Positions 15,232-57,922 of a stretch of DNA of 64,000 nucleotides are shown here, piece by piece. The number at the start of each line of letters is the position of its first letter. Position 1 is the stretch's first letter. Source of the stretch: Acidobacteriota bacterium. Lineage in GTDB: Bacteria > Acidobacteriota > Thermoanaerobaculia > Multivoradales > JAGPDF01. The position numbers and the translations under genes are program-made. The notes beneath the pieces were generated by a model. It did not search any database, was not told the origin of the DNA, and worked only from the letters and a program-made list of their open reading frames with translations. The stretch covers positions 15,333 to 79,332 of the forward strand of contig JACTMI010000008.1 of assembly GCA_014584695.1 (NCBI GenBank). Direction: 5' to 3'.

Positions 15232-15241
15232 GGCCGCTCCT

Positions 15242-15751
15242 TCAGGTCGGGCTCGGGAAGATGCCCTGGAGCGCGATCATGAAGTTGAGTGTCAGGAAGG
15301 GCTGCAAGTTGAGGTGGGCCTGCGAGCCTCCCGCGTTGAGAACCGCGCCAGAGTGGGCGGCAGCCAGGCTCGCCGGCGGACCGTAGATGCTACCGACCGC
15401 CGCCGAGGCGACCGCGAGAAAGGCGTTGGTCGGGTCGGTCGCGTTGGCGCTGGCGCCGACGCCGCTGGCGACGTGGGTGTGCAGCGGCAGCTCGGCGATC
15501 GAGAGCGTGTGCGCCTGCTCGCCAGCCCGCTCGCCGAGCGTGTGTCCCGACCCGGCGTGGATCGGAGTCCGCGCTCGCAGATCGGGCAGGGCGAAGTTGG
15601 TCTGGCCGTTGCCACCGTAGGTCGTGCCCAGCAGGGAGAAGAGCGCCTGGTTCTGGTTGATGGGCAGCAGCTGACCATTGCACTGCGCCCACCCCTGCGG
15701 CACGAAACCGAACGACGCGATCCGGATCTCGCTCAGAAACGGCTCTGCCAT
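15242..15751 (-). CDS. Phage tail-collar domain protein, paralog 3
   Basis: 169 aa; MAEPFLSEIRIASFGFVPQGWAQCNGQLLPINQNQALFSLLGTTYGGNGQTNFALPDLRAR ... ELPLHTH ... GGSQAHLNLQPFLTLNFMIALQGIFP. GGAGGAGGGGGA RBS. Confidence 0.85.
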   Translation of the reverse strand: MAEPFLSEIRIASFGFVPQGWAQCNGQLLPINQNQALFSLLGTTYGGNGQTNFALPDLRARTPIHAGSGHTLGERAGEQAHTLSIAELPLHTHVASGVGASANATDPTNAFLAVASAAVGSIYGPPASLAAAHSGAVLNAGGSQAHLNLQPFLTLNFMIALQGIFPSPT

Positions 15752-15790
15752 CTCGTTGTCCCCCTCCTCCGTCGAGTGTCGCCGACGCCG

Positions 15791-18700: not shown

Positions 18701-21139
18701 GGTCGAGGTGCCGTCGCCGAAGAAGACGAAGATCCAGTCGTTCGCCGCCGACGCCGTCTGCGCCTCGACCAGCGTGTCGAACGGGTCGAGCGAGCGGCCG
18801 AGGCCGCCGGCCGGGGCGTTGTTGCGGACGTACCAGACCCGTTCGAAGAAGTCGATCGTCACCGTGCCCGTCACGGTCGCGAGACCGTCCGAAACGTCGT
18901 AAGTGAAGCTGTCGGGCGACGTGCGGCCGGGCGGCGACGTGTAGCTGAAGCTGCCGTCGGCGGCGACGATCACGACCGCGCCCGCCGTCGCCGCGGCGAG
19001 CGACGCCGTCAACGCCGCGGGTCCGTCCGGATCGGTGTCGTTGGCGAGCAGGTTGCCGGCGGCGTAGACATAGGGGCCGTCGCCGTCGGGGCCGGGATCG
19101 ACGAGCGCGACCCGCAACCGGGTGTTCGAAATGGTCTGGAACGACTCGCCCGTGACCACCGGCGGGTCGTTGACCGGCGTGACCGTGATCGTCGAGGTCA
19201 CCGGCAGGGAGCCGTCGATCCCATCGCTCGCGAGCCAAGTCACCGTCCGGTCGAGCGCCGATGGGGCATCGGAGTTGTTGAAGTAGGTCACGCCGCGCAG
19301 CGCCGTCTGATAGGCCGCGAGCGTGGCGTTGCCGGTCAGCGTCAGCGTGCCGGTCGCCGGCACGAAAGTCGGCGAGAGTCCCGCGCAGGGGGCACCGCAG
19401 GCCAGGATGTCCTGGCCGTTCTGGTAGTTGCCGCTGATCTGGGCGCTCGCCGAAACGAGTTGCGCGTGGTCGGCGTCGGCGACGGTGATCGTGGTGTCGA
19501 TCGGCGTCGCGGGGTCGTTCTCCGTGTAGGCGAGCGTGGCCCCGGCGGAGAGCACCGGCCGATCGTTGACCGAGACCACCTGCACGGTCGCCGTCGCCGG
19601 CGCGCTGGTCTCGACGCCGTCGCTCGCCCGGAAGGCCACCGTGCGATCGAGGGTCGACGGGTCTTCCGAGGTGTTGTGGTAGCGGACGGCCCGCAGCGCG
19701 GTCTGGTAGTTGGCGACCGTTGAGGTGCCGGAGAGCGTCAACGTGCCGGTGGCGGGCACCCAATTGCCGGTGATGCCGAGCTGGTCGACGAAAGAGAGTA
19801 CGTCCTCGCCGTTCACGTAGTTGGCGGTGATCTGTGCCGTCGCGCCGACGAGCAGCAAGCTGTCGCCGTCGGTGACGGTGAGCGCCGGGTCGATCGCGGT
19901 CGCCGGATCGTTCTCTGTGTAGACGAGGGTACCGCCGGCGATCACCACCGGGGGCAAACGGTCGATGATGACATAAGCGAACGCGGATTGCGGCCCGATC
20001 GGATTGCCCAGGGCGTCGAGCGTCGGATCGCCCGCCGTCGGCACGAGCGTGTAGGAAAAAGCGTCGGTGCCCTGGAATCCCGCGGGCGGCGTGTAGACGA
20101 AATGTCCGTCGGCGCCGACGTCGACGGTTCCGCCCTGCGCGGTCGCGGATCCGCTCACGGCGATGGCCGCCAACGGATTTCCGTCGGCGTCCGAGTCGTT
20201 GGCGAGGAGCGACGCCACCAGGGCGGCGGAGCTGTCGAGAGGCGTCGAGGTCACCGTTCGATACTGGTCGCGGCGCGCGAGCGGCGTCGTCCGCACCGAG
20301 GCCGGGACCAACTGGAGGTTCGGCTCGAGCAGGTCGGCGAGCTCGACGTCCGTCGCCGCGCCGGCGCTGTTGGCGATCGTCACCCGATAGCGGAACGTGT
20401 CTCCGGGCTCGACGCCGGCGGGTGGGAGAGGTCCACCGCCCGCGGCGAGGTCGACCTTGGCGGCCGCGATCGCCGGGGAACCGGTGGCGATCCGGTCGAG
20501 GACCAGCCCCTGCTCCGTGCCGGCGATGCGCAGCTCGATCGCGCCGACGTCGGTCAGGTCGGCCGGGCCGAGAGCGCCGGGCACCGTGACCAGCTCCGCG
20601 AACGAGATGAACAGCGAGGTCGGCGCGCCGATCGCGGGCAACACGCGGCCGGCCCGCGAAGCGTGATCGGCGTCCTGGTGAACGACCACGACCATGTGCG
20701 CTCCCGCGGTGGCTGAAGCGATCGAGAGACGGATCCCGCCGGCGGTGCCGCCATCGGTCAGGTCGACGCCGCCGAGACCGGTCGGATCGAGGGCCAACGG
20801 GTCGTTATCGCCGTCCCAGACGAGGTCGATCTCGCCCCGGGTATCGGGCGTCGTGTCGGTCACCGCGAAGCTCAGCACGCCGCCCGCCACGCCCGCCGAC
20901 ACGGGCCCCACGCCCGCGAGTCTCCGCACCACCAAGTCCCGGCTCGTGCCGAGAATGTCCGCGCCGGCGGTGACGACTGTCGACGCGCCGCCGGGGGGAT
21001 CGGTGAGCGTCGCCTGGTTGGTCGTGAGCTCGTCGATGACGACCTCGGTCCACGCCGGAGTCGCCCATCCGAGCACGGCGAGGCCGACGAGAACGCGCCA
21101 ACCGGTCTTCACCCGGGTGGCGTGAGCGCGGCCGCTCAT
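15791..21139 (-). CDS. Giant secreted exoprotein (1782 aa): signal peptide, several cadherin-like/Ig-like repeats, C-terminal right-handed parallel beta-helix region
   Basis: Signal peptide WRVLVGLAVLGWATPAWTEV. Four repeats of ~100 aa with (L/V)xYTENDPAT..., VSVNDRPV and VTPVNDPPV motifs (cadherin-like). Then many NxxI/VxG/DNxV beta-helix rungs (DNTVTAGSRGIDVT, DNVIHGNTGGSGIEV, NNNFHHAY). The start ATG is coupled (ATGA) to the upstream gene's stop. Confidence 0.8.
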   Translation of the reverse strand: MSGRAHATRVKTGWRVLVGLAVLGWATPAWTEVVIDELTTNQATLTDPPGGASTVVTAGADILGTSRDLVVRRLAGVGPVSAGVAGGVLSFAVTDTTPDTRGEIDLVWDGDNDPLALDPTGLGGVDLTDGGTAGGIRLSIASATAGAHMVVVVHQDADHASRAGRVLPAIGAPTSLFISFAELVTVPGALGPADLTDVGAIELRIAGTEQGLVLDRIATGSPAIAAAKVDLAAGGGPLPPAGVEPGDTFRYRVTIANSAGAATDVELADLLEPNLQLVPASVRTTPLARRDQYRTVTSTPLDSSAALVASLLANDSDADGNPLAAIAVSGSATAQGGTVDVGADGHFVYTPPAGFQGTDAFSYTLVPTAGDPTLDALGNPIGPQSAFAYVIIDRLPPVVIAGGTLVYTENDPATAIDPALTVTDGDSLLLVGATAQITANYVNGEDVLSFVDQLGITGNWVPATGTLTLSGTSTVANYQTALRAVRYHNTSEDPSTLDRTVAFRASDGVETSAPATATVQVVSVNDRPVLSAGATLAYTENDPATPIDTTITVADADHAQLVSASAQISGNYQNGQDILACGAPCAGLSPTFVPATGTLTLTGNATLAAYQTALRGVTYFNNSDAPSALDRTVTWLASDGIDGSLPVTSTITVTPVNDPPVVTGESFQTISNTRLRVALVDPGPDGDGPYVYAAGNLLANDTDPDGPAALTASLAAATAGAVVIVAADGSFSYTSPPGRTSPDSFTYDVSDGLATVTGTVTIDFFERVWYVRNNAPAGGLGRSLDPFDTLVEAQTASAANDWIFVFFGDGTSTGQDAGIALKSGQRLVGEHAGLSIPVGLNGNGSPTVLHSGTPGSRPLVDRSGAGNSAVSATDVIPTEIVGLSLSSVAANGIDLTTNPAFAGSGSLTIGENVVRGSGEEGVDVNHGGTGALTLAIHDNTVTAGSRGIDVTRTGGPLTITRFDDNVIHGNTGGSGIEVAGATFDAVPGLPIQQVAGGVTLIGQSGNGVGTHGLLLTNVLGDLGFTDLDIFNDAGTGLGVTSTGALNAGAGTGFRLVVPAGVATIDSNGGPAVSVNNASVTLPLGFLESTNSTTTGLSLVNAFGGVGATALSVNSGAISDPAGASGDAVVVTGGSGHVTLGIPVTNNNGRAVAISSRTSDTVSFTGAITETGSGILLNSNGAASTTVFAGGLSASTGANPAFTATSGGRLSICDESPCNPGSTGPLVNALSTTTATVLNLSNTTITPDGVTLRSINSAGASGNTAIILANTGSGPFHVTGTGSAGTGGTIDNKTADGMTMNNTDGPVTLRHMIFEDLGNMGGGIDTISGHDAIHGQDVDGGLTLDGVIIRRISDNAIHGATLAGGAATVWNGLTLNNVTFEDSNRFHVAGVGDSNNEGMVRILGIRGPVSVTNSTLQRGGELIDFFVTGGTLTMTATNNNFHHAYKEFTSGPRSSVGGHCIDVTVQGAGNASVTIGDRVNNALDNDFLNCAIGSIRVVGDAGATGNVDVVIGQNEFTVNDHSSGIGGDFDFPQGGVLVGSLGTDTMTWNVVVDGNYFDEIANASGGVGQFTLAMTNGTWNVLVEDNTFDTPGNAPWFLRADSTVSARVMFRNNLGIKGAFCSTDPSSAGGGCNLGAGQLCPGAAGFCGPGLRALADLQNGAVLDLTIINDLFAEHDAGFDPGQTFESRILPTGGGGTLCLDLQNNRAPDGYSLEEFAGDFNLVGSGTCPVGSPSAACATLLGARGNLGGANSPTTSPPFVNVEVGSTIDVVPGACLQPSGPMF

Positions 21140-22004: not shown

Positions 22005-24066
22005 TCACGGCACGCACCCCGAGCAACCACCGTTCCACCGCGAGGTGTCCCCCGTCTCGAACCCGTCGGCGAAGATCGCCCCGCCGGCCGAAAGCCGCGC
22101 GCCGTCGATGCCACCGTCGAAGCTCTGCCCCGACGCGGTGACGAAGGCAAAGCGGCAGGCGGCCGACTGCGATCCGGCCGGCGGCGTGACGGCCCGGCTC
22201 AAGCTCGACCAGAGTCCACCGGTGTCGAACAGAACCAGCGTATCGGCGACCGTCCCGAGCAAGCCCGCGCAGGCGGCGGACGAATAGAACCGACAGCGGC
22301 GCTCGAATCCGATCGGCACTCCCGGCGCGGCGGCGAGGCGGACACGGACGTCCAGCTCGTAAGCCGTGCCGGCAACAACCTCCACGCACTGGCCGAGCCC
22401 GAACAGCGTGTCGACGCCCGGCGCCAAGTTGGTGAGGAACACCGAGCCCGAGTCGTCGGCGTCGTCGGCATCCGCGCTGCTCCAAGTGACCTCCGCCGGC
22501 ACCGCCGCTTCGGGCGTCCAGCCGCCCAGGTCGCAATCGAAGTGACCGTTGGCGAAGTGGTTGTCGGGGTCGCTCCGGAAAGCACGCCGGAAGTCGCCGC
22601 CGGCGTTCGCGTCGCCGTCGCCGTCGAGCGCGTTGCCGGCGAGATCGGTCAGCTCGTCGCACAGGAAGAGCCGGTGCTGGCCTGCGGCGAGCGGCGCGGC
22701 GAGGGAGAGCGTCGCGGTGTCGGTCCCCGTGTCGTAGGTGACACTGGAGATCGACACGGCGACATCGTCCCCCGCGGCGCCGCCGCAGCCGGTGGTGGCG
22801 AAGTCGAAGTCGGGGCCGGCGGCGACGACGAGGTAGTTGGCAGGATTCGTCACGTCCGCGGCGCCCGAATCGCCCGGCGGGTCGGCCATGGGTTCGCTGA
22901 AGACGGCCCGGAAGCCGCCGATCCACGAGGTGACCGTCTCGCACTCGGTGAGCTCGCCGCCCGGGCTCGCGGGCACGGTGTCCACCTCGATCACGGTCGG
23001 CGGTGTACTGTCGAGCGTCACCGTCAAGCAGTCGCTGTTGTCGCCCGGATTCGGATCGGCACCATTGGCGCCGTCGTCGGCGACCGATGCGCAGTTGTCG
23101 ACCTCGGGCACGCCGGGCGGCAGCGGGTCGTCGAGATCGACGGCGAAAACCGCGGCGCCGCCGGCCCCACCCCCAGCGACTCCACCGACCGCGAGCGTGC
23201 AGGTCGAGCCGGCGCTGTTGTCGGGCAGGCAGGCCCAACCGGCCGTCGACGCTCCCGGGTTGAAAGTCGTGTTCGCGGGTACCGTCTCGGTGATCGCGAC
23301 GCCGGTCGCGCCCTGATTGCCGACGTTCGAGTAGTCGAGGTCGAAGGGGATCGTGTCGCCGGGGAAGGGCGTCGGACCGGCGTATCCCTTGGCGAGGGTC
23401 AGATCCGGTTGGGCGACGAGCGGCGTCGTGTCGGTCGAGCTGTTGTTGCCCGGAGTCGGGTCGGCGCCGTTCGTCCCGTCATCGGCGATCGTCGCGGTGT
23501 TCGAGATCTGAGCGACACCGGATTGTCCACCGTGACGGCGAACGTCGCCGCGCCGCCGGCTCCGCCACCCGCGAGCGCGCCGATCGCGAGCGAGCAGGCC
23601 GAGCCGGCGTTGCCGTTCGGCACGCAAACCCAGCCGGCGGTCGATGCGCCGGCGTTGAAGGTCGTGTTCGCCGGCACCGTCTCGCCGAGCACCACGCCGG
23701 TCGCGCCCTGGTTGCCGACGTTGGAGTAGGTCAAGGTGTAAGCGACCGTGGCCCCGGGCACCGTCGAGATGCCGCCGTCGCTCTTGACGATGGTCAGGTC
23801 CGGTTGGGCCCGCCGAGCGCCGGGTCGTCAGTCGGCACATCGGGGTCGTAGTTGGAACCGCTGACGTCCCCCTGGTTGCAGACCTGCGTGGCGCCGGCGA
23901 GGACCGGGTTGGCGACCGTGACCAGCCACTCGATGGTAACGGCGGCGCCGTCCTCGAGCTCGCCCAGGGGAACCGTGATCAACTGCGCCCGGCTCGCCGT
24001 GGCCGCGAGGCCCACCCAGACGAGGGCCCAGCGGAGAATTTGACGACGAATCCCGAACCGGCTCAT
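22005..24066 (-). pseudogene. DUF11 ('conserved repeat domain') surface protein with signal peptide, interrupted by two apparent frameshifts (pseudogene or sequencing/assembly error)
   Basis: Three consecutive ORFs in different frames on the same strand (24066-23794, 23761-23399, 23840-22005) together encode one protein: signal MSRFGIRRQILRWALVWVGLAATASRAQ, then three DUF11 repeats (YSNVGNQGATGV..ETVPANTTFN.GASTAGW.C), then a jelly-roll-like C-terminal domain. Frame breaks lie near 23800 and 23510. Confidence 0.6.
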
Positions 24067-29107: not shown

Positions 29108-30817
29108 ATGACCGCCATGCCGCGACCCCGTGCCTCGCTCCCGCTGCTCGCCCTCGCTCTGCCGCTCGCCGGCCTCGCCCAGAGTCCACCCCCCAGCCAG
29201 CCGCCGACCTTCACGGAGAGGGTCGAGGTGCTGGTCCGCAATGTCGATGTCGTGGTCAGCGACCGCGACGGCAACCCCATTGTCGGGCTGACCCGCGAGG
29301 ACTTCGAGCTGCTCGAGAACGGCAAACCGGTGCCGATCGTCAACTTCGCCGCCTACCGGGAGGGGGGCGACGCCGATCTGGCGCTCGAAGGGGGAGCGGT
29401 TCCGACCGAGGCCGTGGCTGCGGAGCCAGCCAGGAGTCGGGTTCTCGCCGCCCCCCCGGCGACCTGGGTCCTCCACGTCGATCAGGCGCAGCTCGAGCCC
29501 AAACAGCGCAACGAGATCGTCAAGCAGTTGCGCCGCTTCGTCGCCACTGCCCTGCGTCCCGGCGACCGCACCATGGTCACCACCTACGACGGCATCTCGC
29601 TGCGCATCCTTTCGCAATTGACGACGGACGTCGCCGCCACCGACCAGGCCCTGGCGAAGCTCGAGAAGAGCTCCAGCATCGCCGCGACCCGCCTCGCGCG
29701 GCGCCACCAACTGCGGCTCGAAATTGTCGACCCCCAGCTCGACCTCTACCGCGCCAAAGAGGTGCTGTGGGCGATCCAGGACTACGCCGAGGCCGAAACC
29801 GTCTACAGCCGCAACGCCCTGAGTGCTTTTCACGACCTGCTCGTCATCGTCGGCGGCATCGACGGCCGGGTCAACGTCGTGAGCGGCGGCGGCGGCTTCA
29901 GCAACCAGCCAGCCGAGGAGTTCTTCCGCCTCTTCGCAGTGCGCTTCCCTGGTCTCTTCGCCCGGGAGCTCGACGCTCGCCGCACCGATCCAACGCGCAT
30001 CGAGCTCGAGACCGGCTTCGCCAAGCTGACCCGCGCCGTCAACTCGAGCCGCGTCACCATCCACACCATCTACGCCGGCAGCGAACGGGGACCGGCGGTC
30101 CACGCCGACGACGGCGGCGGATTCGAGGGCTTCACGCCCTCCGAGATCGTCACCCAGGAGGGAAGCTCCGCGCTCGCCTCCTTCGCCGCCTCGACCGGCG
30201 GCCGGTCGTTCGTCGCCGCGCCGGACCTGGCGCGACGCCTCGGCACCGCACGCAACGACGCTGTCCACTACTACTCGCTCGGCTACGAGCCGCCGCGGCT
30301 GGTCCCCGGCGAGTCGCGCCGGGTCGAGGTGCGGGTCAACCGCCCGGGCGCGCGGGTGCTCCACCGCCAGCAGCTGGCCGAAAAGAAGGCGGACGAGCTG
30401 GCCGGCGAAGCGGCGCTCTCGGCCCTGCTCGGCGAAACCGAGCCCGACCCCTTCGGCACCCGGCTGGTGGTCGGCACCGCGACCGGCAAGCGCAAGGAAC
30501 AGCGAGTACCGGTCGAGGTCCAGGTGCCTCTGACTTCGGTGACGCTGCTGCCCGAGAAGGAGCGCTATCGGGGGCAGCTGCTGTTCCAGTTCGCGCTGCG
30601 CTCCCCGGACGGCGGCTACCGGCGCCTCGAGCCGCGCCCCATCGCGCTCGAGATCCCGGCCGATCGGGTCGGCCAAGCCATGGGCCAGCACGTGACGATG
30701 AAGGTCGACATCGCGGTCGAGCCGGGTGACTACCGCCTCGCCGTCTCAGTCCTCGACGAGCTCTCGGGCGTCCACGGCACCACCAGCGCCGCCCTGGTCG
30801 CCACCGGGGGCCGCTGA
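29108..30817 (+). CDS. Secreted VWA-domain protein ('VWFA-related' family), paralog 1
   Basis: Signal peptide MTAMPRPRASLPLLALALPLAGLAQ. Conserved block VxVRNVDVVVSDRDGNPIVGLTREDFELLENGKPVPIVNFAAY then WVLHVDQAQL, HTIYAG..., YYSLGY; about 45% identical to paralog 2. Confidence 0.75.
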   Translation: MTAMPRPRASLPLLALALPLAGLAQSPPPSQPPTFTERVEVLVRNVDVVVSDRDGNPIVGLTREDFELLENGKPVPIVNFAAYREGGDADLALEGGAVPTEAVAAEPARSRVLAAPPATWVLHVDQAQLEPKQRNEIVKQLRRFVATALRPGDRTMVTTYDGISLRILSQLTTDVAATDQALAKLEKSSSIAATRLARRHQLRLEIVDPQLDLYRAKEVLWAIQDYAEAETVYSRNALSAFHDLLVIVGGIDGRVNVVSGGGGFSNQPAEEFFRLFAVRFPGLFARELDARRTDPTRIELETGFAKLTRAVNSSRVTIHTIYAGSERGPAVHADDGGGFEGFTPSEIVTQEGSSALASFAASTGGRSFVAAPDLARRLGTARNDAVHYYSLGYEPPRLVPGESRRVEVRVNRPGARVLHRQQLAEKKADELAGEAALSALLGETEPDPFGTRLVVGTATGKRKEQRVPVEVQVPLTSVTLLPEKERYRGQLLFQFALRSPDGGYRRLEPRPIALEIPADRVGQAMGQHVTMKVDIAVEPGDYRLAVSVLDELSGVHGTTSAALVATGGR

Positions 30818-30936
30818 GGCCGACGCGGAGCTTTCGTCCCTCGGGAGAGCCTTGTCGTCCCACCGGGAGCCGACCGGCCGCCGATAGCGCCGGCTCACGG
30901 CCGACGTCGGCCGCGCATCTCTCTTACAATGAGTCG

Positions 30937-32676
30937 ATGCGCACCCGGCGACTCCCCCTCACGGCTCTGACCCTTCTGGCGGTGGTCGCTTCCGGCCCGC
31001 CGGCGCCCGCCCCCGGCCAGGAGCAGGGGCTGGCCTCGTTCCTCGACCAGGTCGATGTCAGGGTGATCAACGTCGACGTCCTGGTGCTCGACGCCAAGGG
31101 GCAGCCGGTCAACGGGCTCCATCGCGAGGATTTCCAGATCCTCGAGAGCGGCCGCCCGGTCGAGCTGACCAATTTCGCCGCCTACGAAGAGGCGGCCGGC
31201 GTCGAGACGGTCGCCGGCGTCGCGACGATCGAGGGCGAGCTTGCGGCCGAGGATGCCGCGGGGCTGGCGCGGACGGCGCCGGCAGCCACCTGGATCGTCT
31301 ACGTCGACCAGGCGCAGCTCCAACCCGGTCCGCGCAACCTGGTCCTCCGCGAGGTCCTCGAGTTCCTGCGCGCCGGACTGGCGCCGGGGGACCAGGTCGT
31401 CGCCGCCACCTTCGACGGCGCGGCGCTCAAGATCCTGGCGCCGCTGTCGAGCGAACCCGCGCCCGCCCTGGCCGCGCTCGAGGCTCTGCAGAAGCAGACC
31501 GGTGTTCCCTCCGGCCGGCGCGGACGCTCGGCGCTGCTGCAGCAGGAGATTCTGCTCGTCGACCTGCAGTCGATCACCGTGCTCGAGGAAGCCGACCAGC
31601 TCCTGACCGAGATCGAGTCGGCGGGTGAAGAGGAGGCGATGAGGAGCCGCAACGCGGTCACCGCGCTACGCGACCTGCTCGGCGTCGTCGCCGGCATCGA
31701 CGGCCGCGTCGCGTTGCTGCTCGGCGGCGGCGGTTTCGACTCCGATCCGCTCGGCAACCTCTACGATCTCTGGGAGTCGAAGTTCGCCTCGCTGCTGACC
31801 CAGCTCCCCCGCCGCCCGCAGCGCCAGACGGATCCGCGCCGCAACCAGCTGGCGAGCGACTACCAGGGCCTCCTGCGGGCGATCAACAGCAGTCGCGTCA
31901 CCGTCTACACGATCTACGCCGGCGCCGGCCGCGGACCGGACGTCTCGGCGGAGGTCGGCGGCATGCCGATCATCGACGGCCCCTCGCTGTCGCTCGGGCC
32001 CAGCCCGGAAGGAGGTTCGACCCTGGCGGCGTTCGCCACCGAGACTGGCGGTCGATCCTTCGTCAGCGCGACCGATCTCTCGAAGCGCCTGGCGGCGGCG
32101 CGCCGCGATTTCTCGATCTACTACTCGCTCGGCTACCGGCCCGACCGGAGCGAGATCGGCGGCTACTACCCGGTCGAGGTCCGCGTCCGCCGCGAGGGGC
32201 TGCGGGTCGTGCACCGGCGCGGCGTATCCGAGCGGACCTCCGAGGAGGAGGCCCAGGACTCGGCCGTGGCGGCGCTGCTCGCCGCGGAGCCGCCGGCCAA
32301 CCCGCTCGGGGCCAGGATCGAGATCGGCGCCGCCGAAGCCGCCCGCCGGGGCCGGACCTCGACCGTGCCCGTCACCGTGCAAGTCCCCTTGCGTGGCACG
32401 ACGCTGCTGCCCGCGGGGACGGCGCACCAGGGCAAGCTCTCCTTCTTCTTCGCCGTCCGCTACCCCGACGGCGGCTATCGTCGCCTCGAATCGCGGCCGC
32501 TCGACTTCGACGTCCCCAACGACCGCCTGGCCGGTGCCCTCGGCCAGCACGTCTCGTACCGTGTCGACCTGCCACTCGAACCGGGCGACTATCAGCTCGG
32601 CGTCGCCGTGGTCGACCGCATCGGCGGCGTGCGCGGCTCGCTGACGGCACCGATCAGCGTGGCCCGGGAGCGATGA
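30937..32676 (+). CDS. Secreted VWA-domain protein, paralog 2
   Basis: MRTRRLPLTALTLLAVVASG signal. Same architecture as paralog 1 (DVRVINVDVLVLDAKGQPVNGLHREDFQILESGRPVELTNFAAY, YTIYAG, YYSLGY). Confidence 0.75.
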   Translation: MRTRRLPLTALTLLAVVASGPPAPAPGQEQGLASFLDQVDVRVINVDVLVLDAKGQPVNGLHREDFQILESGRPVELTNFAAYEEAAGVETVAGVATIEGELAAEDAAGLARTAPAATWIVYVDQAQLQPGPRNLVLREVLEFLRAGLAPGDQVVAATFDGAALKILAPLSSEPAPALAALEALQKQTGVPSGRRGRSALLQQEILLVDLQSITVLEEADQLLTEIESAGEEEAMRSRNAVTALRDLLGVVAGIDGRVALLLGGGGFDSDPLGNLYDLWESKFASLLTQLPRRPQRQTDPRRNQLASDYQGLLRAINSSRVTVYTIYAGAGRGPDVSAEVGGMPIIDGPSLSLGPSPEGGSTLAAFATETGGRSFVSATDLSKRLAAARRDFSIYYSLGYRPDRSEIGGYYPVEVRVRREGLRVVHRRGVSERTSEEEAQDSAVAALLAAEPPANPLGARIEIGAAEAARRGRTSTVPVTVQVPLRGTTLLPAGTAHQGKLSFFFAVRYPDGGYRRLESRPLDFDVPNDRLAGALGQHVSYRVDLPLEPGDYQLGVAVVDRIGGVRGSLTAPISVARER

Positions 32677-34721
32677 TCCGCCGATTGCGCCACCGGCAGC
32701 TCGCCGCCAGCGTCCTGATCGCCGCCGCGGCGGTCACCAGCGGCTCGGCGCTGCGCGCCCAGGCGAGTGGCATCGAAGTCCGGTCGATCGGCGGCGCCCG
32801 CCCCGAGGCCGCCGCCCTCTTGGCGCACGGCGGCAGCGGTGGACCCCTGCGCACCCAGATCGTCGCTCTGCCCGCTGGCCACGGCCGCGTGGCCGTGCCG
32901 GTCCTGGTTGGCATCGAGCTCGACGGCGAGAGCCTGCTCGCCGGTCAACCGTCGGCGCGGCTGGGCGTCGAGCTCACCCTCTACGCGGTCGGTCTGGGCG
33001 GCACGATCGGCGCCGCGATCGCCGAGGGAATCGCCGTGGATCTCGGCCGCCATGGTGGCGCGATCGAGGCCGGAGGACTGCGTTGGCTGGGCAGCCTGGA
33101 GCTCGCACCCGGCGACTGGTCGATCCGGGCGCTGGTGCGCAACCGCCAGACCGGGGCGTTCGGCCTCCGTGAGACCCGGCTGGTCCTCACCACGCCTGGC
33201 GCCGAGGCGCAGGCGACCTTCCTCGCCCCGGTCGTGGCCGCCGCCGACGAGTGGATCGAGGCGCGCTCCCCGGCGCTCGCCCCGGCGGCCGCCGGGGTCC
33301 TGACGGAGATCGGCGGCCCGCCCTCGGCGCTGCCGGTGTTGGCCCTCGACGCGCCCGCGCGACTCTGGGCCTGGATCGGCGGCGGCGAGGCGGGTCCGCT
33401 CGCGGCGCGCCTGGTCGACGGCCTCGGCCGGCCGGCGGGCGAGCCGACCTTGACCGCGCGGGCCGGCCGCCGGCTGGCGCCCGGTCTCGCCGCGACGGAG
33501 CTCGAGATGGCCGCGCCGGGGGGCCGCGCGGGCCTGCGCGATCTCATCCTGACGACGCACGATGGCGAGCTCGTCTCGCTGCCGCACCGTTGTCTCGCCC
33601 GTCCGGCCGACGAGGCCGTGGCCTGGAACGCGGTCGCGCGTGTCGCCCTGGCGCGGGCCGCCGCCGAGGAGAGTCCGGAGGCGCCGGCGCCGGTGGCGCC
33701 CCCCGCCTCCAAGGAGGACCTCGAGCGGTTCCGCACCGCCTATCGCGAGGCTTGGCGACGCTACGCGGCAGGGGACCCGGAGGGCGGCGTCGCCGCGCTC
33801 CAGGTCTTCGAGTCCGCCGCGCTCGAAGGCGATCCCAAGCGGGCCATGGGCTGGCTGGCGCAGGCCGATCGCTCGCTGCTGTCCGACATCGCCAAGAGCC
33901 GCCCCGGCGCGCTATTGCCGCTCGCGCTCTTCTACCAGGAGCTCTTCCGGGCGCATCTCGCGGCGGGCCGGATCGGCCTCGCGCGGCGCGCGGAGATGGT
34001 GACGCAATCGCTGCTCGTCGACAGCGCCAGCCGCGCGGCCACCGACGAGGAGCGCGAGATCGTCGCCTCGGCACTCGAGAGCCTCGCCGCCGACCTGCTC
34101 GACGCCCAGGCGCCGAACCGGGCCGCCGCGCTGCTCGAGCGGTCGACCTCCCTGGCGCCGAACCGGGCCGGCTCCTGGGTGGCGCTGGGGGCCCTCCACG
34201 AACGCAACCGCGAGCTCGACCCGGCCCGGCGCGCACTCGACCGCGCGCTCGCCGCCGCCCCCCGGCACCGCGAGGCCCGCCTTCGCCGCGCCCTGATCGA
34301 GGTTCGGGCCGGGTCGGCCAGGCGCGGAGTCGAGCTGCTCGACCAGCTGATCGCCGAGCCGGCCCTGGATTGGATCGCGGTCATCGCCAACCAGGAGCGG
34401 GCTCGACAGCACCTCGCGGCGGGCGACCTGACAGCGGCGGCTTCGCTGCTGGAGAATGCCGCGCGTCGCTTCCCCGCCGAGCCGTCGCTCGAGACCGCGC
34501 TCGCCTACACTCTCGATCGAGCTGGCCGGCGCGCCGAGGCGCGCGCCGCGGTCGAGCGCGCCACCCGGGCTGGTCGCAGCTTCGACATCGCGCCGCGCCA
34601 GCACTACGCGCGCTTCCCCGTGCAGGCTCTGGCCGCAGGTCGCGCCACGGTCGAGGAGCGCGGTTTCCTCGCCCGCTCCGAGTTGCTCGCCGCGCTCGGT
34701 GGCGGCGGAGGTCCGGCGTGA
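32673..34721 (+). CDS. Secreted TPR-repeat protein (682 aa)
   Basis: ATGA overlap with the upstream gene. N-terminal signal; the C-terminal ~300 aa are Ala/Leu/Arg-rich TPR-like helical repeats (ALDRALAAAPRHREARLRRALIEVRAG...). Confidence 0.6.
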   Translation: MIRRLRHRQLAASVLIAAAAVTSGSALRAQASGIEVRSIGGARPEAAALLAHGGSGGPLRTQIVALPAGHGRVAVPVLVGIELDGESLLAGQPSARLGVELTLYAVGLGGTIGAAIAEGIAVDLGRHGGAIEAGGLRWLGSLELAPGDWSIRALVRNRQTGAFGLRETRLVLTTPGAEAQATFLAPVVAAADEWIEARSPALAPAAAGVLTEIGGPPSALPVLALDAPARLWAWIGGGEAGPLAARLVDGLGRPAGEPTLTARAGRRLAPGLAATELEMAAPGGRAGLRDLILTTHDGELVSLPHRCLARPADEAVAWNAVARVALARAAAEESPEAPAPVAPPASKEDLERFRTAYREAWRRYAAGDPEGGVAALQVFESAALEGDPKRAMGWLAQADRSLLSDIAKSRPGALLPLALFYQELFRAHLAAGRIGLARRAEMVTQSLLVDSASRAATDEEREIVASALESLAADLLDAQAPNRAAALLERSTSLAPNRAGSWVALGALHERNRELDPARRALDRALAAAPRHREARLRRALIEVRAGSARRGVELLDQLIAEPALDWIAVIANQERARQHLAAGDLTAAASLLENAARRFPAEPSLETALAYTLDRAGRRAEARAAVERATRAGRSFDIAPRQHYARFPVQALAAGRATVEERGFLARSELLAALGGGGGPA

Positions 34722-35902
34722 ATCGTCCGCCGGCACGCGGCCTTCGCGTCACGGCGGCCGCCGGGTCGCTGATGGCGGCGGCGCTGCTCGCGGCGCCCGC
34801 CTTCGAGGTCGCCATCGTCGAACCGCTCGCCGGCCAAGCGGCCTTCGGCCCCACCGACTTCGCGGCCGAGGTGCGCGGCGGCGAGGCACGCTGGGTCGAG
34901 TTCTACGTCGACGGCCGCAAGGTCGGCGAGCGAACGGCGCCGCCCTACCGGATCGAGGTCGATCTCGGCGAGGAGAACCTCGAGCGCCGATTCCGCGTCG
35001 TCGCCCACGGCGAGGCCGGCGCCGTCAGCGAGGCCGAGCTGGTGCTGCCGCGGATCCGCGTCGACGACCGCATCGAGCTGCCGCTGCAGCAGCTCTACGT
35101 CACCGCGAGCCGCGCCGGCGCGCCGGCGCACGACCTGGCGCGCGGGCACTTCCGGGTCTTCGACGGCGGCGTCTCGCAGCGCCTGGTGACGTTCGAGCGC
35201 GGCGACGTGCCGCTCGCCGCCGTGCTGCTGCTCGACAGCTCGCTTTCGATGCGCGGCGCCCCGCTCGCCGCCGCATTGGCCGGCGCGCGCGCTTTCGCCG
35301 CCGGCATGGCGCCGCTCGACGAAGCGATGCTGCTGCTCTTCTCGGACCAGGTGATCCACCGCTCGGCTTTCGGCTCGGATCCGGCGACGCTCACCGGCGG
35401 CCTGACGGGGGCCGCCGCGCGCGGCGGCTCGGCGATCAACGACCACCTGTTCCTGGCGCTCAAGGAGCTCGAGCGCCGGCAGGGGCGGCGGGTCGCGATC
35501 CTGCTCTCGGACGGCATCGACGTCGACAGCTTGCTCTCCGCGCGCGAGCTCGAGCAGTCGATCGGCAGGAGCCCGGCGCTGCTCTACTGGATCCGTCCGG
35601 TCAGCAAGGCCGCCGGCCCACTCTGGCACCGCTCGGCTTGGCGCGACTTCAAGGAACACGACGCCGAGGTCAAGGCGCTCGAGCGGATGGTAGCTCGCAG
35701 TGGTGGGCGCATCGTCCCGATCGCCCGCATCGAGCAGGCCGAGGAGGCCTTCCGCGAGATCTTGGCCGAGCTGCGCAACCAGTACGTCCTCGGCTACTAC
35801 CCCAGCGTCGCCCGCCACGACGGCTCCTGGCGCCGCATCCGCATCGACCTCGCCCTCCCCGGCATCGACCTGCGCGCCCGCGAGGGCTACTACGACGACT
35901 GA
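34718..35902 (+). CDS. Secreted VWA-domain protein, short paralog 3 (394 aa)
   Basis: GTGA overlap with the upstream gene. MIDAS-like VLLLDSSLSMRG; LLSDGIDVDS; ends ...NQYVLGYYP... as in paralogs 1 and 2. Confidence 0.7.
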   Translation: MNRPPARGLRVTAAAGSLMAAALLAAPAFEVAIVEPLAGQAAFGPTDFAAEVRGGEARWVEFYVDGRKVGERTAPPYRIEVDLGEENLERRFRVVAHGEAGAVSEAELVLPRIRVDDRIELPLQQLYVTASRAGAPAHDLARGHFRVFDGGVSQRLVTFERGDVPLAAVLLLDSSLSMRGAPLAAALAGARAFAAGMAPLDEAMLLLFSDQVIHRSAFGSDPATLTGGLTGAAARGGSAINDHLFLALKELERRQGRRVAILLSDGIDVDSLLSARELEQSIGRSPALLYWIRPVSKAAGPLWHRSAWRDFKEHDAEVKALERMVARSGGRIVPIARIEQAEEAFREILAELRNQYVLGYYPSVARHDGSWRRIRIDLALPGIDLRAREGYYDD

Positions 35903-35993
35903 CCGCAACCCCAGCGGCCGCCGACGGGGATCCCGTCCGCTCGAATCAAGCAGAGAGCGAAACAGAAGAAGAAGAAAATGGAAAAGAAAGCAA

Positions 35994-36366
35994 AGCTCCA
36001 GTTAAGGGCAGGTGTAGGGAGCGATCTCGTTGAGGCGAAGCGGTTTGCCGTCCGTGAAGAAGAGAAGAGCAACAGCTCCAGTTAAGGGTAGGTGAATGGA
36101 ACGTCCTCGCTGAGCCGAAGCGGTCTGCCGTCCGTGAAGAAGAGAAAAGCAACAGCTCCAGTTAAGGGTAGGTGAGTGGAGCGTCCTCGCTGCGGCGAGG
36201 CGGATTGCCGTCCGAGAAGAAGAGAAGAGGCAACAGCTCCAGTTAAGGGTAGGTGAGTGGAGCGTCCTCGCTGCGGCGAGGCGGATTGCCGTCCGTGAAG
36301 AAGAGAAAAGGCAACAGCTCCAGTTAAGGGTAGGTGAGTGGAGCGTCCTCGCTGCGGCGAGGCGTG
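35994..36366. repeat. Tandem repeat locus 2: about 4.6 copies of an 80-81-bp unit (agctccagttaagggtaggtgagtggagcgtcctcgctgcggcgaggcggattgccgtccgtgaagaagagaaaaggcaac)
   Basis: Units start at 35994, 36074, 36154, 36235 and 36316. It shares the AGCTCCA(T/G)T(G/A)AAGGG core and the GAAGAAGAGAAAAG motif with loci 1 and 3. A period that is not a multiple of 3 argues against coding. Confidence 0.8.
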
Positions 36367-36446
36367 CGGGCGAGCCCGACGTCGTCGAATCCCCGCCGGC
36401 GCGACCGCGCGCTGACCGGGCCACAGAGCGTGCGGTCCGGCAGAGG

Positions 36447-36720
36447 CCCCCCTCCCCCTCCCCCTCCCCCTCCCCCTCCCCTTCCCCTTCCCGTTCCCCT
36501 TCGCCTGCCCCTTCTCATTCCCCATTCCGCTCCTTTTCCCACCTTTCACCGCCCCCGCTACCGCGCAGCTCAACTCAGTCAACAACGCCCCCCCTCCCAC
36601 CCCTTCTATGGAAGCCTTTTCTTTTCTCTTCTTTTCTCTTCTCCGCTCTTCTCTTCTCTTCTCTTCTCTGCGCCTCTCCTGACTCTTCTTCCACCTCCTT
36701 CCCTTACTCTCTTCTCGCTC
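36447..36720. repeat. Polypyrimidine tract of about 275 nt beginning with (CCCCCT)5(CCCCTT)2; a G-rich quadruplex-capable complement on the minus strand
   Basis: The plus strand is >90% C/T from 36447 to ~36720. It also contains an inverted partial copy of the repeat core (cccttctatggaagc = reverse complement of gcttccatagaaggg) at about 36598-36680. Confidence 0.85.
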
Positions 36721-36936
36721 CGGACTCCTAGCGTCTGCCTCGTGGCTCTATTCCGCTGCAGCGGCAGGGGTGGGGGGTGTTCGGCGAGACCAGGCGCGAC
36801 TGCGGCGGGGGGGCGGGCGGGGTCGGAAGAAAGGGCTTTCGACCCCGCAGAGGGGCGGCTCGGCCCGGCGGGCAACTCCCGGGCGAGCGCGACGTAACTA
36901 CCCTGGCCATCCACTCCAGAAGGGAGCGATCCGAAC

Positions 36937-38121
36937 ATGAGGAAGAGGAAGAGGTCCAGGTCCGCCGCGACGTCGTCCGTATTTGCAACCGGTCTCCTGT
37001 TCGCGCTGGCCGTGGCGGTCGGCGCCGCGCCGCCGGCGGGGGCTCAAGCGGTGACACTGCCGCCGTCGGGAGACAACCAGAAGGCTTCGGTCACCCAGCA
37101 CCTCGGGCTGGTCGAGGTGACCGTCGACTACTCCAGCCCGGATGTGCACGCCCCGGACGGCACCGACCGGCGGGGAAAGATCTGGGGGCAGCTCGTCCCC
37201 TTCGGCTGGCACCAGGAGGCCTTCGGCACCTGCGGCCAGATGTGCCCCTGGCGCGCCGGAGCCAACGAGAACACCGTCGTCCGCTTCAGCCACGACGTCC
37301 AGGTCGAGGGCCAGCCGCTCGCGGCCGGCGCCTACGGTCTCCACATGGTGCCGGGCGAGAATGAGTGGATCGTCATCTTCTCGAACAACTCGTCCTCGTG
37401 GGGCCACTACTTCTACAGCGAGGCCGAGGACGCCCTGCGGGTCACCGTCAAGGCGGAGAAGGCTCCCTACCGGGAGTGGCTGACCTACGAGTTCACCGAC
37501 CGCCAGATGGACAAGGCGACCCTGGCGCTGGCCTGGGAGGAGCTGGTGGTGCCGATCCGGATCGCCGTTCCGAATGCGATCGACCTCTATGCCGCGAACC
37601 TCGGGCGCGAGCTCCGCAGCGCCCCCGGCTTCGACTGGCGCGGCTGGCAGCAATCGGCGCAGATGCTCGTCGACCGCAAGGTCCGCCCCGAGCTGGCCGA
37701 GCAGTGGGCCAGCAACGCCGTGTCGCTCCAGTTCATCGGCCAGGAAAACTGGCAGACGCTGCGCACCCTGGCGGCGGCGCAGCGCGCCAACGGCAAGGAC
37801 GCGGCGGCGGAGGCGACGATGGCGCGCGCGCTCGTCCACCCGACGGCCGGACCGGTCGACATCTACCAGTACGCCCGGCCACTGATCGCCCAGGGCCAGC
37901 CCGAAAGAGCGCTCGCGGTCTTCCAGAAGGTGGCCGAGCGCTTCCCGGGCGCCTGGCCGACCGACGTCGGAATCGCCCGCGCCTACTCGGCGCTCGGCCG
38001 CTATGCCGAAGCGATCCCGCACCTCGAAGCCGCGCTCGCGATCGCGCCGGACGATCTGAACCGGAGCAACATCGAGCGGATGCTCGGCCGGTTGAAGAAG
38101 GGCGAGGACATCAACAAGTGA
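36937..38121 (+). CDS. DUF2911 domain protein with C-terminal TPR region, secreted
   Basis: Signal peptide. The family signature is YSSPDVHAPDGTDRRGKIWGQLVPFG..WRAGANENTVVRFSHDVQVEGQPLAAGAYGL. RBS AGAAGGGAG. Confidence 0.7.
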   Translation: MRKRKRSRSAATSSVFATGLLFALAVAVGAAPPAGAQAVTLPPSGDNQKASVTQHLGLVEVTVDYSSPDVHAPDGTDRRGKIWGQLVPFGWHQEAFGTCGQMCPWRAGANENTVVRFSHDVQVEGQPLAAGAYGLHMVPGENEWIVIFSNNSSSWGHYFYSEAEDALRVTVKAEKAPYREWLTYEFTDRQMDKATLALAWEELVVPIRIAVPNAIDLYAANLGRELRSAPGFDWRGWQQSAQMLVDRKVRPELAEQWASNAVSLQFIGQENWQTLRTLAAAQRANGKDAAAEATMARALVHPTAGPVDIYQYARPLIAQGQPERALAVFQKVAERFPGAWPTDVGIARAYSALGRYAEAIPHLEAALAIAPDDLNRSNIERMLGRLKKGEDINK

Positions 38122-38155: not shown

Positions 38156-40567
38156 TCATTCGACGACGACGCGCACCGCCCTCGAGCGGGCGCTGCTCCA
38201 GGGCACCCGCGCCTGGATGCGGTGCTCCCCCGGTACCAGCGGCCAGCGCGCCTCGTAGGGTGCCTCGACGGTCGCGAAGGGGACGCCGTCGACATACCAG
38301 ACCAGCTGCGGCACCGGCGGCTCGACCACCGCCGAGAGGCGTAGCGTGTTGCGCGGGGGCGGTGTTTCCGGGTCGAACAGCAGGCGGACGCCGGGCTCCG
38401 GCGAGACGATCTCGACCCGAGGCTCGAGCGCCGCCAAAGTTCCACCGCCCGGCTCGCGCTGGGTGCCCGCGAGCGCCGCTGGCAGGCTGGCGACGCTCTG
38501 CCGGGCCAGCCAAGCGGCGTAGCGGGGCGGCAGCTCGACATGGACCCGGCCCTCGAGCTCGCGCGCCGGCGTCGCCGCCGTGGCGGGCGCGCCGGTCCGC
38601 CGGTCGACCGCCAGCCGGAAGTGCGCCGCGCAGTCGCCGAGCGGCGCCTCGGCCGGCAGCCACTCGAGCACCACCCGGTCACACGCTGGCGTCGCCCGCC
38701 CCCCCGTGAGCGGGCAGAGCCGCTCTGGCCGGAAGCCCGTGGGCGGCGGGAAGGGCGTCGCCGCCAGCCCGTCGAGCTGGTCGCGGTGGAGGTGCTCGAT
38801 CAGGCCGCGCGCCAGGCGGGCCGCGACCCGGTAGCCGGACAGCTGCGTCATCGGCCGCTCGTCCGGATGACCGACCCAGGCCGCGACCAGGTAGCGGTCG
38901 GTCCAGGCGACCGTCCAGGCGTCGCGGTACCGCGAAGAGGTCCCGGTCTTGACCGCGACCGCGAACGGATACTCGGTGAAGCCGAGTCGTGGAAAGGTCG
39001 GCATACGCGCCTGGGGATCCGCCAGGAAGAGCGTCACCAGCCGTGCCGTCGCCGGTGAGACGAAGGGCGGCCCCGGCGCCGCCGTCTCGCCCTCGAGCCA
39101 GACCAGCGAGCGCGGGCGGCCGTCCCCCGCGAGCGCGGTGTAGGCGCCGGCCAGCCGCTCGAGCGTCACCGGCAGCGCGCCGATCGCGAGCCCCAGGCCG
39201 TAGCGCGCCGAGGGCCGTTCGTGCGCGTGCAGGCCGAGGTCGGCGAGCGCGGCGTAGAACGGCTCGAGGCCGACCCGCGCCGCCAGCGTGACCGCCGGCA
39301 CGTTGCGCGAGTTGGCGAGCGCTGCCCGCGGCAGCAGCGGGCCGAGAAAGCGGTCATCGGCATTCAGGATCCCGCCCGGCCCCGGCCCGAGGTCGTCGAG
39401 GATCGTCGCCGGGCCGATCACCCCGCGCTCGAGCGCCTGCGCGAACAGCAGCGGCTTGAGCGTCGAACCCGAGGAGCGCGGCAGGCGGAGGTAGTCGATC
39501 GCCCCGGCTCGCTCGCGGTCGAAGTAGCCGGTCGAGCCGACCGCCGCGAGCACCCGCCAGCTGCCGCGCTCGACCACGATCGCGGCCGCGTTGCCGGCGC
39601 CCCGGTCGCTCGCCTCCGCGACCGCCTGCCGGGCCGCGTCCTCGGAAAACTCCTGCAGGTCGAGGTCGAGCGTGGTGGTCAACAGATAGCTGCCCGGCCC
39701 CACCGCGTCGGCCAGTCGCCCGCGCAGCGCCAGCAGCGGGTGGAGCGCCGCCTCCGGCCGCGCCGCCCGCCAGGGGAGGCGGAGCTGCGCGATCTCCTCG
39801 CGGGCGGCGGCGAGCTCGAGCGAGGAGATCTCTCCCCGTTCGGCCAGCCGCTCGAGAATCCGGCGCCCTCGCGCGATCGCCCGCGCCCGACCGCGCGGAT
39901 CGTGAGGGTCCATCCGCGCCGGCGACTGCGGAATCGCCGCCAGAAAGGCGATCTCGGCCCACGACAGGTCCTCGACCGGTTTGTCGAGGTAGCGGCGCGC
40001 CGCGTAGCCGATGCCGTGGATCCGGTGGCCATAGGGGACGATCCGCAGGTAGTGGCGCAGCACCCCCTCCCGCCCGTGCCGCAGCGTCATCGCGACGGCG
40101 GTCGCCGCCTCGAGCAGCTTGCGCCCGTAGCCGCGCACCGCCGGCCGCTCGAGCCGCGCCACCTGCATCGCCAGGGTCGAGGCACCGGAGACCCGCCGAC
40201 CGCCGGCCGAGTTCTGCCGCAACGCGCGCAGGATCGCGAGCGGATCGACTCCGGGGTGGTGGACGAAGCGGCGGTCCTCGATCGCGATCGTCGCCGCCGC
40301 GACCCGCGCGGGGACCGCGGCGAGCGGCCAGTAGCCGAGCCGGTCCTCCCCCGGCGCCGGCAGCTCGCCGAGGAAGCGTCCGGCGCGATCCCGCACCAGC
40401 AGGGTCGGCTCCGGCGGGTCGAAGCCCGAGCGGGCCAGCGCCAGCGCGGCGAGCAGGGCGACGCCGAGGCCGGCGAGCGCGGCCAGACCGCGGGCGATCC
40501 AGCGGCCTCGCCGGGCGCCACGAAACCGGGCGACCGCCGCGCGGATGCTCCACGCGATGCCTCTCAT
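38156..40567 (-). CDS. pbpC: Penicillin-binding protein 1C (bifunctional glycosyltransferase/transpeptidase)
   Basis: 803 aa. GT51 motifs GASTLAMQVAR and RRYLDKPVEDLSWAEIAFLAAIPQSP. Transpeptidase SxxK SSGSTLKP, SRN ANSRNVP, KTG AVKTGTS. C-terminal PBP1C-type domain. Confidence 0.85.
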   Translation of the reverse strand: MRGIAWSIRAAVARFRGARRGRWIARGLAALAGLGVALLAALALARSGFDPPEPTLLVRDRAGRFLGELPAPGEDRLGYWPLAAVPARVAAATIAIEDRRFVHHPGVDPLAILRALRQNSAGGRRVSGASTLAMQVARLERPAVRGYGRKLLEAATAVAMTLRHGREGVLRHYLRIVPYGHRIHGIGYAARRYLDKPVEDLSWAEIAFLAAIPQSPARMDPHDPRGRARAIARGRRILERLAERGEISSLELAAAREEIAQLRLPWRAARPEAALHPLLALRGRLADAVGPGSYLLTTTLDLDLQEFSEDAARQAVAEASDRGAGNAAAIVVERGSWRVLAAVGSTGYFDRERAGAIDYLRLPRSSGSTLKPLLFAQALERGVIGPATILDDLGPGPGGILNADDRFLGPLLPRAALANSRNVPAVTLAARVGLEPFYAALADLGLHAHERPSARYGLGLAIGALPVTLERLAGAYTALAGDGRPRSLVWLEGETAAPGPPFVSPATARLVTLFLADPQARMPTFPRLGFTEYPFAVAVKTGTSSRYRDAWTVAWTDRYLVAAWVGHPDERPMTQLSGYRVAARLARGLIEHLHRDQLDGLAATPFPPPTGFRPERLCPLTGGRATPACDRVVLEWLPAEAPLGDCAAHFRLAVDRRTGAPATAATPARELEGRVHVELPPRYAAWLARQSVASLPAALAGTQREPGGGTLAALEPRVEIVSPEPGVRLLFDPETPPPRNTLRLSAVVEPPVPQLVWYVDGVPFATVEAPYEARWPLVPGEHRIQARVPWSSARSRAVRVVVE

Positions 40568-54262: not shown

Positions 54263-54339
54263 CGGACGCGCCCGCCTCGAACGAAAGCTCCCCTCGCGGG
54301 GGGCCGGCGTCGGCCGGCCGGCCCCCGACGAGGCGCGGT

Positions 54340-55698: not shown

Positions 55699-55711
55699 GG
55701 GATGTCTCTCC

Positions 55712-57547: not shown

Positions 57548-57922
57548 GGAGACCCCCAATGCTCGGGAAGATGCGCTGGCCCTCGAGCGCGGACCAGCGG
57601 GCTGGCAGCGGAACGTAACGGCGACTTCCACGCACCGACCCCGCTTCGTCGCGGCCTCTCGAGGTCGCGGCGGCGGATCGGAAAATCGTCGTGCGCGTCG
57701 ACCGGGCTCGCGCCCGGTTCGACCCAAGCTGGAAGCTCATCCCTGGCAAGGACTCCTGTCCGGGAACCTAGCGACCCGGCTCGTCCCCTCGCGCCATCGC
57801 ATGAGGCGGGGACATCCTACCCGCAGGGGTGGCGCGACGGAAAGCAAGGTGTGACCGCCGGGTCTCCCGCCCGAGCCGGCGCCGGGCCGGGCGCGAGCCG
57901 GGTGGTGAGAAGATCGGTGGCG

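Follow-up and report, generated by a model that had tools for sequence, protein, structure and literature searches.

Gene content and export features

The DNA considered here is a stretch of 64,000 nucleotides (hereafter the window) from an Acidobacteriota bacterium (assembly GCA_014584695.1, contig JACTMI010000008.1) with a G+C content of about 70%, and the system in question is a cluster of four genes, named A to D, which encodes three proteins of the von Willebrand factor type A (VWA) kind and one tetratricopeptide repeat (TPR) protein. Acidobacteria are an abundant and poorly cultured phylum of soils and sediments, and TIGR03436 proteins, the family in which A, B and D are placed below, are among their most expanded gene families; to our knowledge, no TIGR03436 protein has a known function or partner. 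A literature search on TIGR03436, on VWFA-related Acidobacteria proteins and on VWA proteins of Thermoanaerobaculia found nothing, in agreement with a preliminary description of the locus, made from its letters, which had left the family without a function. The cluster occupies the positions given in that description, as positions 29108-35902 of the plus strand are filled by four co-oriented open reading frames (ORFs) with coding-type G+C at third codon positions:

29108-30817, plus strand: gene A, 569 amino acids (aa), putatively secreted TIGR03436 protein
30937-32676, plus strand: gene B, 579 aa, paralogue of A with the same architecture
32673-34721, plus strand: gene C, 682 aa, putatively secreted, two predicted beta-sandwiches and TPRs
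34718-35902, plus strand: gene D, 394 aa, putatively secreted, GTG start with GGAGG upstream

The start of gene A probably lies at 29117 (Met4), which would give a protein of 566 aa with AGGA 9 nt upstream, because most homologues and the 566-aa call in a 97%-identical strain begin at this methionine. Genes A and B are separated by a gap of 119 nt, and the last three genes are joined by the 4-nt stop/start overlaps noticed previously, namely ATGA for B/C and GTGA for C/D. Scans for promoters, terminators and Rfam families over 28.5-37.2 kb gave nothing above chance.

Each of the four proteins opens with a basic and then hydrophobic segment resembling a signal peptide. No later segment resembling a transmembrane (TM) helix with a Kyte-Doolittle mean well above 1.6 is present in A to D, the sole later window above this threshold being at residue 63 of C with a score of 1.63. 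Cysteine is absent from A, B and D, making a lipobox and lipoprotein anchoring impossible for them. Given the signal-like N-termini, the lack of later TM segments and the lack of cysteine in A, B and D, the most simple reading is that A to D would be Sec-exported soluble proteins.

Two kinds of VWA protein in one family

TIGR03436 (acidobact_VWFA, 'VWFA-related Acidobacterial domain') has an NCBIfam cut-off of 81.25 bits, which A (142.7 bits), B (137.6 bits) and D (121.7 bits) all exceed, so that the family named in the preliminary description was the right one; the VWA-fold region of the model is covered, and no other protein in the window gives a match of this type. The named TIGR03436 homologues retrieved here are almost exclusively from Acidobacteriota, as expected of a family restricted to and expanded in this phylum. 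Pfam VWA models recognize D (VWA_2 at 44.4 bits against a cut-off of 27, and VWA_CoxE at 29.6 bits) but neither A nor B at E<=0.1.

The three proteins had been described as paralogues, which stands for A and B (44% identity over their full length, E 4e-139) but needs revision for D, as it has a different architecture and a metal site. BLASTP finds no significant similarity between A and D, whereas profile-profile comparison with hhalign aligns residues 53-424 of A with residues 129-393 of D at a probability of 99.5% (E 2e-23); D is thus a distant relative of A and B and no close paralogue. At its N-terminus, D has a possible Big_7 immunoglobulin-like (Ig) domain (residues 31-83, 21.6 bits, below the cut-off of 24.1), and the conserved block thought to be N-terminal in all three proteins is in fact internal in D (residues about 123-160), where it follows the Big_7 domain. 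The domains of D, together with its metal ion-dependent adhesion site (MIDAS) and the corresponding region of A, are located as follows:

about 34808-34966, plus strand: Big_7 Ig domain of D, sub-threshold Pfam match
about 35111-35893, plus strand: TIGR03436/VWA domain of D, from TIGR03436 and Pfam VWA models
35234-35248, plus strand: intact MIDAS motif of D, D173-S-S175-L-S177, acting with S/T238 and D265
29480-29494, plus strand: degenerate MIDAS motif of A, reading D125-Q-A-Q-L instead of D-x-S-x-S, aligned by hhalign onto the DSSLS of D

In analyzing the families of the two proteins, the metal site is seen to be kept in one and lost in the other. Among 31 sequences of the D family (49-99% identity), D173, S175, S177 and D265 never vary, and only Ser or Thr occurs at position 238. 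Among 41 sequences of the A family, 40 have Asp at position 125 and 11 have Ser at position 127; at position 129, 32 have Leu and 1 has Ser, and the beta4 Asp is found in 2. Both A and B read VDQAQL at the motif and VSGGGGF in the beta4 loop, with Gly or Ser at the position of the Asp. As judged from these alignments, A and B are MIDAS-less VWA derivatives with an added C-terminal domain, which have kept the fold and lost the metal site.

Sequence searches of the PDB returned no meaningful match for D, generic TPRs only for C and, with a profile of A, marginal VWA matches only (4rck at E 0.0015; anthrax toxin receptor). One possibility that was weighed and not adopted is that the conserved C-terminal G-Y-Y-D-D of D forms a free tail to which the TPR protein binds; this sequence is probably a structural strand, since both the TIGR03436 model and the hhalign alignment reach the last residues. 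The final residue itself is variable (D, E, F, Y, N or H).

Predicted structures of A, B and C

The AlphaFold2 model of A, built from a 41-sequence alignment, has a mean predicted local distance difference test score (pLDDT) of 84.5 and a predicted TM-score (pTM) of 0.82. The conserved N-terminal block, for which structure prediction had been suggested, is modeled as strands at residues 44-84, followed by a disordered linker and a VWA core with long helical insertions at 192-249 and 270-313. The C-terminal part consists of strands at 388-424, which open with YYSLGY, a helix and a separate beta-sandwich at 452-565. The strands on either side of the VWA core may together make up a single small sandwich that harbours the VWA domain as an insertion, and the TIGR03436 model covers both sets. 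The extra C-terminal domain is shared with B:

30389-30805, plus strand: C-terminal beta-sandwich of A (residues about 428-566), model strands 452-565, common to B
32242-32661, plus strand: B copy of this domain, matched by a hidden Markov model (HMM) of the A domain

A profile of this domain matches 1113 representative proteins, 258 of them at E<=1e-10, nearly all of them about 540-620 aa long with the domain at the C-terminus, implying that the architecture of A defines a sizeable sub-family.

Proteins that combine VWA with a beta-sandwich are known from other settings, and the structural matches include integrin beta I/hybrid domains, ANTXR2 (VWA and Ig-like), Sec23/24, ArnB (trunk VWA and beta-barrel) and the calcium-channel protein alpha2delta-1; these are fold-level likenesses only, with 8-13% identity and whole-chain TM-scores of 0.14-0.24, and the metal site on which most of these proteins rely is missing from A and B.

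The TPR protein C is modeled at a pLDDT of 84.4 and a pTM of 0.79, with beta-sandwiches at residues of about 34-172 and 183-310, joined by a disordered linker to all-helical repeats at 347-674, in which the helices are paired throughout:

32769-33197, plus strand: domain N1 of C, first beta-sandwich (residues about 33-175), model strands 61-172
33210-33608, plus strand: domain N2 of C, second beta-sandwich (residues about 180-312), from the model
33705-34697, plus strand: TPR superhelix of C (residues about 345-675, about eight repeats), from Pfam and the model

Pfam matches above cut-off lie in the C-terminal half (TPR_19 at 34.7 bits and TPR_14 at 25 bits). Foldseek with the C model finds an 8-repeat consensus TPR (E 7.5e-8) and the TPR structures of OGT; the search is swamped by TPR superhelices, leaving the N-terminal sandwiches unclassified. 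Across 77 TPR partners, the conserved polar residues are E380, E510, E534, R538, W567, Q574, E575, R578 and R642, of which W567, Q574, E575, R578, R538 and R642 are conserved at 87% or more. Domain N2 is matched by its HMM only in the window and in the closest relatives (loci L011-L013). N1, on the other hand, aligns in hhalign (residues 43-169) with residues 433-562 of A at E 5.7e-4 and a probability of 29%, and the two models show the same succession of elements, being a helix, two strands, a short helix, two strands, a helix and three strands. The C-terminal domain of A and B is likely, but not proven, to be homologous to N1 of C, as suggested by this alignment and the model topologies.

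The conserved unit in related genomes

When GTDB species genomes were scanned with the alignment of D, at least 571 stretches gave a match, and the best 80 loci were examined. These best 80 are almost all from Thermoanaerobaculia or other Acidobacteriota metagenome-assembled genomes. Only about 36 full-length homologues of the A type were found by a word-indexed search, from Thermoanaerobaculia metagenome-assembled genomes, along with 16 homologues of C and 823 of D at E<=1e-8; the best 120 of the latter have at least 49% identity, and D is, by sequence, a highly conserved protein. A census with an HMM of each domain against six-frame ORFs was made on 62 independent loci, each with at least 4.6 kb upstream. 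Representative gene orders are as follows, where TM denotes a membrane protein discussed below, as do the lengths in brackets:

L001 and L010: A-C-D
L002: A-(214 aa)-B-C-D, with nitrilase, SGL and aminotransferase genes upstream as in the window
L007 and L009: short TPR-D-(222-241 aa)
L011: A-B-C-D-TM, the closest colinear relative

In L007 and L009, the short TPR proteins share 41-43% identity with the TPR region of C. A C-type TPR gene ends at the start of D in 59 of the 62 independent loci, and the overlap of TPR stop and D start is NTGA (4 nt) in 65 of 77 loci and TGATG in most of the other 12. The A-type genes, in contrast, range in copy number from 0 to 3 upstream per locus, and their presence tracks that of N1 in the TPR protein: both are present in 30 loci, both are absent in 28 and 4 are discordant (Fisher p = 7e-13 with kinship ignored). 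Of the 33 loci that have an A-type gene upstream, 30 encode N1, as does 1 of the 29 that have none there. As seen from the adjacency, the overlap and this covariation, the conserved unit is the translationally coupled TPR-D pair, while A and B and the N-terminal sandwich of C form a linked optional extension. The four-gene order, which had been taken as the unit, is replaced by this pair. All-against-all clustering of ORFs from 83 loci revealed no other widely conserved neighbour, only lineage-level synteny and a common family of Ser/Thr kinase paralogues, and the module is thus self-contained.

In comparing the cluster with TIGR03436 proteins at large, the N-terminal block of beta-strands, the VWA core and the C-terminal Y-x-L-G-Y strands covered by the model are alike. 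The difference lies in the two sub-architectures seen here, one being D with Big_7, an intact MIDAS and an obligate TPR partner, and the other being A and B without MIDAS and with helical insertions and an extra C-terminal beta-sandwich.

A membrane protein in relatives and the slot after D

In relatives, the module goes together with a polytopic membrane protein of 214-241 aa which carries a K-C-x-W-C-N...A-C-x-x-H motif and has no Pfam or NCBIfam match. Its gene follows D in many short loci and in L011, and lies between A and B in L002:

L011, 10155-10796: membrane protein
L007, 10239-10964: membrane protein
L009, 10218-10886: membrane protein
L002, 11768-12412: membrane protein

An HMM of this protein matches in L002, L007, L009, L011, L015, L017, L019-L021, L024 and L026-L027 and has no match in the window, where tblastn of the slot after D detected no remnant either. 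This protein may be the membrane partner of the module. The lack of membrane anchors remarked on in the preliminary description therefore holds for the proteins of the window but is no general property of the module, as relatives including L011 carry the polytopic protein. In the window, the slot and the genes beyond it are arranged as follows:

35903-36936, no strand: non-coding slot after D, 1035 bp, at the position of the membrane-protein gene in colinear relatives
35987-36364, no strand: tandem repeat of an 80-81-bp unit, 4.7 copies with 91% matches, found by Tandem Repeats Finder inside the slot
36448-36678, no strand: CT-rich low-complexity runs (CCCCTT, TTCTC) after the tandem repeat
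36937-38121, plus strand: DUF2911-plus-TPR protein, downstream of the cluster
38156-40567, minus strand: PBP1C-type protein (Transgly, Transpeptidase, BiPBP_C), convergent with the DUF2911-TPR gene

A 97.4%-identical strain (L091), also without the membrane-protein gene, has a single repeat unit, showing that the copy number varies between strains. The 80-81-bp unit occurs nowhere else in the window, gives no RNA-structure signal (z = 0.82) and has no Rfam match.

A proposed complex and its alternatives

The cluster could well encode parts of one extracytoplasmic, most likely periplasmic, complex, a reading to which we give somewhat less than an even chance. Its core would be the translationally coupled pair of the TPR scaffold C and the MIDAS-bearing protein D. 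Integrin I-domains and other VWA domains clamp an acidic residue by means of their metal site, and D would likewise be the ligand-binding subunit, with its metal site clamping an acidic residue or carboxylate of a partner or substrate. C would hold D through a patch of conserved polar residues on the C-terminal TPRs (E534, R538, W567, Q574, E575, R578 and R642). A and B would be adaptors, neither catalytic nor metal-binding, docked on C by pairing of their C-terminal beta-sandwich with the homologous N1 domain, thereby extending or modulating the complex. In many relatives, the small polytopic membrane protein with its CxxC...CxxH motif would probably tie the complex to the inner membrane; its gene is not at the locus in this genome. 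Candidate roles are envelope organization, adhesion or substrate capture.

Several observations weigh against such a complex. The physical association of A and B, C and D is argued from gene coupling, covariation and domain sharing, and the signal peptides were assigned by eye and Kyte-Doolittle hydropathy. The similarity between the C-terminal domain of A and N1 is weak, as reflected in the hhalign probability given above, and the correlation between A-type genes and N1 is not phylogenetically independent. L016, L023 and L071 carry an A-type gene about 1.25 kb downstream of D while their TPR partner is short and without N1, an order that does not fit the simple picture of A docking on N1, and the more distant A-type homologues of L003 and L006 stand alone with no TPR or D gene nearby.

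The main rival is that these are independent secreted binding proteins or adhesins, each with its own ligand such as a polymer, a mineral surface or a metal, in which case the cluster would reflect tandem duplication and co-transcription. Large paralogous expansions are an established feature of TIGR03436, a locus may have anything from 0 to 3 A-type copies, distant A-type proteins are solitary and the A model resembles, in a fold search, tandem matrix proteins of the FnIII-like kind such as RbmA, all of which would suit independent proteins; the stop of the TPR gene and the start of D overlap almost universally, however, which argues for stoichiometric co-production, A and B without MIDAS are poor candidates for metal-dependent adhesion, and the tight covariation of A-type genes with the extra domain of C is unexpected for proteins acting independently. 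We regard this rival as possible, if rather unlikely. Cooperation in the synthesis or repair of the cell wall with PBP1C, a class A penicillin-binding protein encoded nearby, would have an analogy in the periplasmic pairing of alpha-2-macroglobulin with PBP1C in Proteobacteria, and the position of the PBP1C-type gene is kept in L007, L009 and L011. It lies, however, on the opposite strand with the DUF2911-TPR gene between it and D, it neighbours the module in only about 10 of 83 loci, which looks like lineage-level synteny, and Pfam detects no macroglobulin-type domain in the cluster proteins, making this role improbable.

The succession of VWA and TPR genes had been likened to the Bat (Bacteroides aerotolerance) operon, and a reduced system of this type, serving oxidative-stress tolerance with MoxR and DUF58 encoded elsewhere, would be the corresponding explanation. 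Bat proteins do share the vocabulary of VWA/MIDAS and TPR and are proposed to form an envelope complex, although the aerotolerance role of the Leptospira Bat proteins was not reproduced (PMC3557215). The parts that define a Bat system are lacking here: the N-terminal domain of BatA (PF07584) and BatD (PF13584) have no match in the cluster proteins, nor does BatD in their neighbours, and the structural match to 3ibs is no better than those to TFIIH p44, CMG2, ITIH and others. MoxR/AAA or DUF58 proteins are found neither among about 30 ORFs scanned across the 64 kb, as the absence of an adjacent AAA+ ATPase or DUF58 gene in the preliminary description had already indicated, nor beside the module in the 80 related loci. 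Where the Bat proteins of Bacteroides, Leptospira and Francisella, with VWA in BatA and BatB and TPRs in BatB and BatC, are membrane-anchored, those of the cluster have no TM anchors, would be soluble and secreted and belong to a different curated family, TIGR03436; the TPRs are on a protein of their own, fused to beta-sandwiches, and two of the three VWA proteins lack MIDAS. Membership in a Bat operon was rejected on these grounds, and a reduced Bat-type system is very unlikely. Less credible still is a vWA-MoxR-type system for intracellular conflict or defence: VWA proteins do occur in vWA-MoxR-VMAP ternary systems, but none of the four proteins matches a PADLOC-DB family at E<=0.01, all four carry putative secretion signals and no ATPase is found in the scanned ORFs, so that a defence role was effectively excluded.

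Returning to the proposed complex, a bolder form of it, which we regard as possible, if rather unlikely, is that the TPR-VWA(MIDAS) pair would be the core of an undescribed modular periplasmic machine of the class Thermoanaerobaculia, unrelated to Bat. Lineages would add to this core MIDAS-less pseudo-VWA subunits plugging into the beta-sandwich of the TPR scaffold, a zinc-ribbon-like polytopic membrane protein, or both, in an integrin-like assembly of active subunit and pseudo-subunit for envelope organization or surface attachment.

Significance

The cluster is a new operon architecture inside a known and uncharacterized family, and offers three handles on part of it, in that the D sub-type is nearly always co-produced with a TPR partner of its own, the A/B sub-type is a derivative without the metal site, and the occurrence of A/B goes with that of an extra domain in the TPR protein. 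From each of them follows a testable hypothesis on a heteromeric periplasmic complex, and the misleading analogy to Bat aerotolerance is removed. The value is moderate, as the organisms are uncultured and nothing here is mechanistically surprising for VWA and TPR proteins.

Neighbouring genes in the window

Downstream of the cluster, the order of the DUF2911-TPR gene followed by the PBP1C-type gene is kept in L009 and L011 but in only about 10 of 83 loci overall. Upstream, an IS200-like Y1 transposase gene (PF01797; 26784-27734, minus strand) lies between the SGL-like gene and the aminotransferase gene; it is present in the near-identical strain L091, no gene is found there in the syntenic L002, and it looks like a lineage-specific insertion beside the cluster. 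Further upstream, 14725-21139 and 22005-23840 (both minus strand) encode a secreted protein of 1782 aa that has Big_9 and cadherin-like domains and then two tandem phage-tail-collar proteins (PF07484, about 183 aa each), with a DUF11 repeat protein nearby; together these may be a surface or adhesion cluster. On the far side of the window, 50910-57727 (minus strand) encodes DUF1302, DUF1329 (LolA-like) and MMPL/RND-type transporter proteins in a row, which is a recurring gene set for outer-membrane and periplasmic export.

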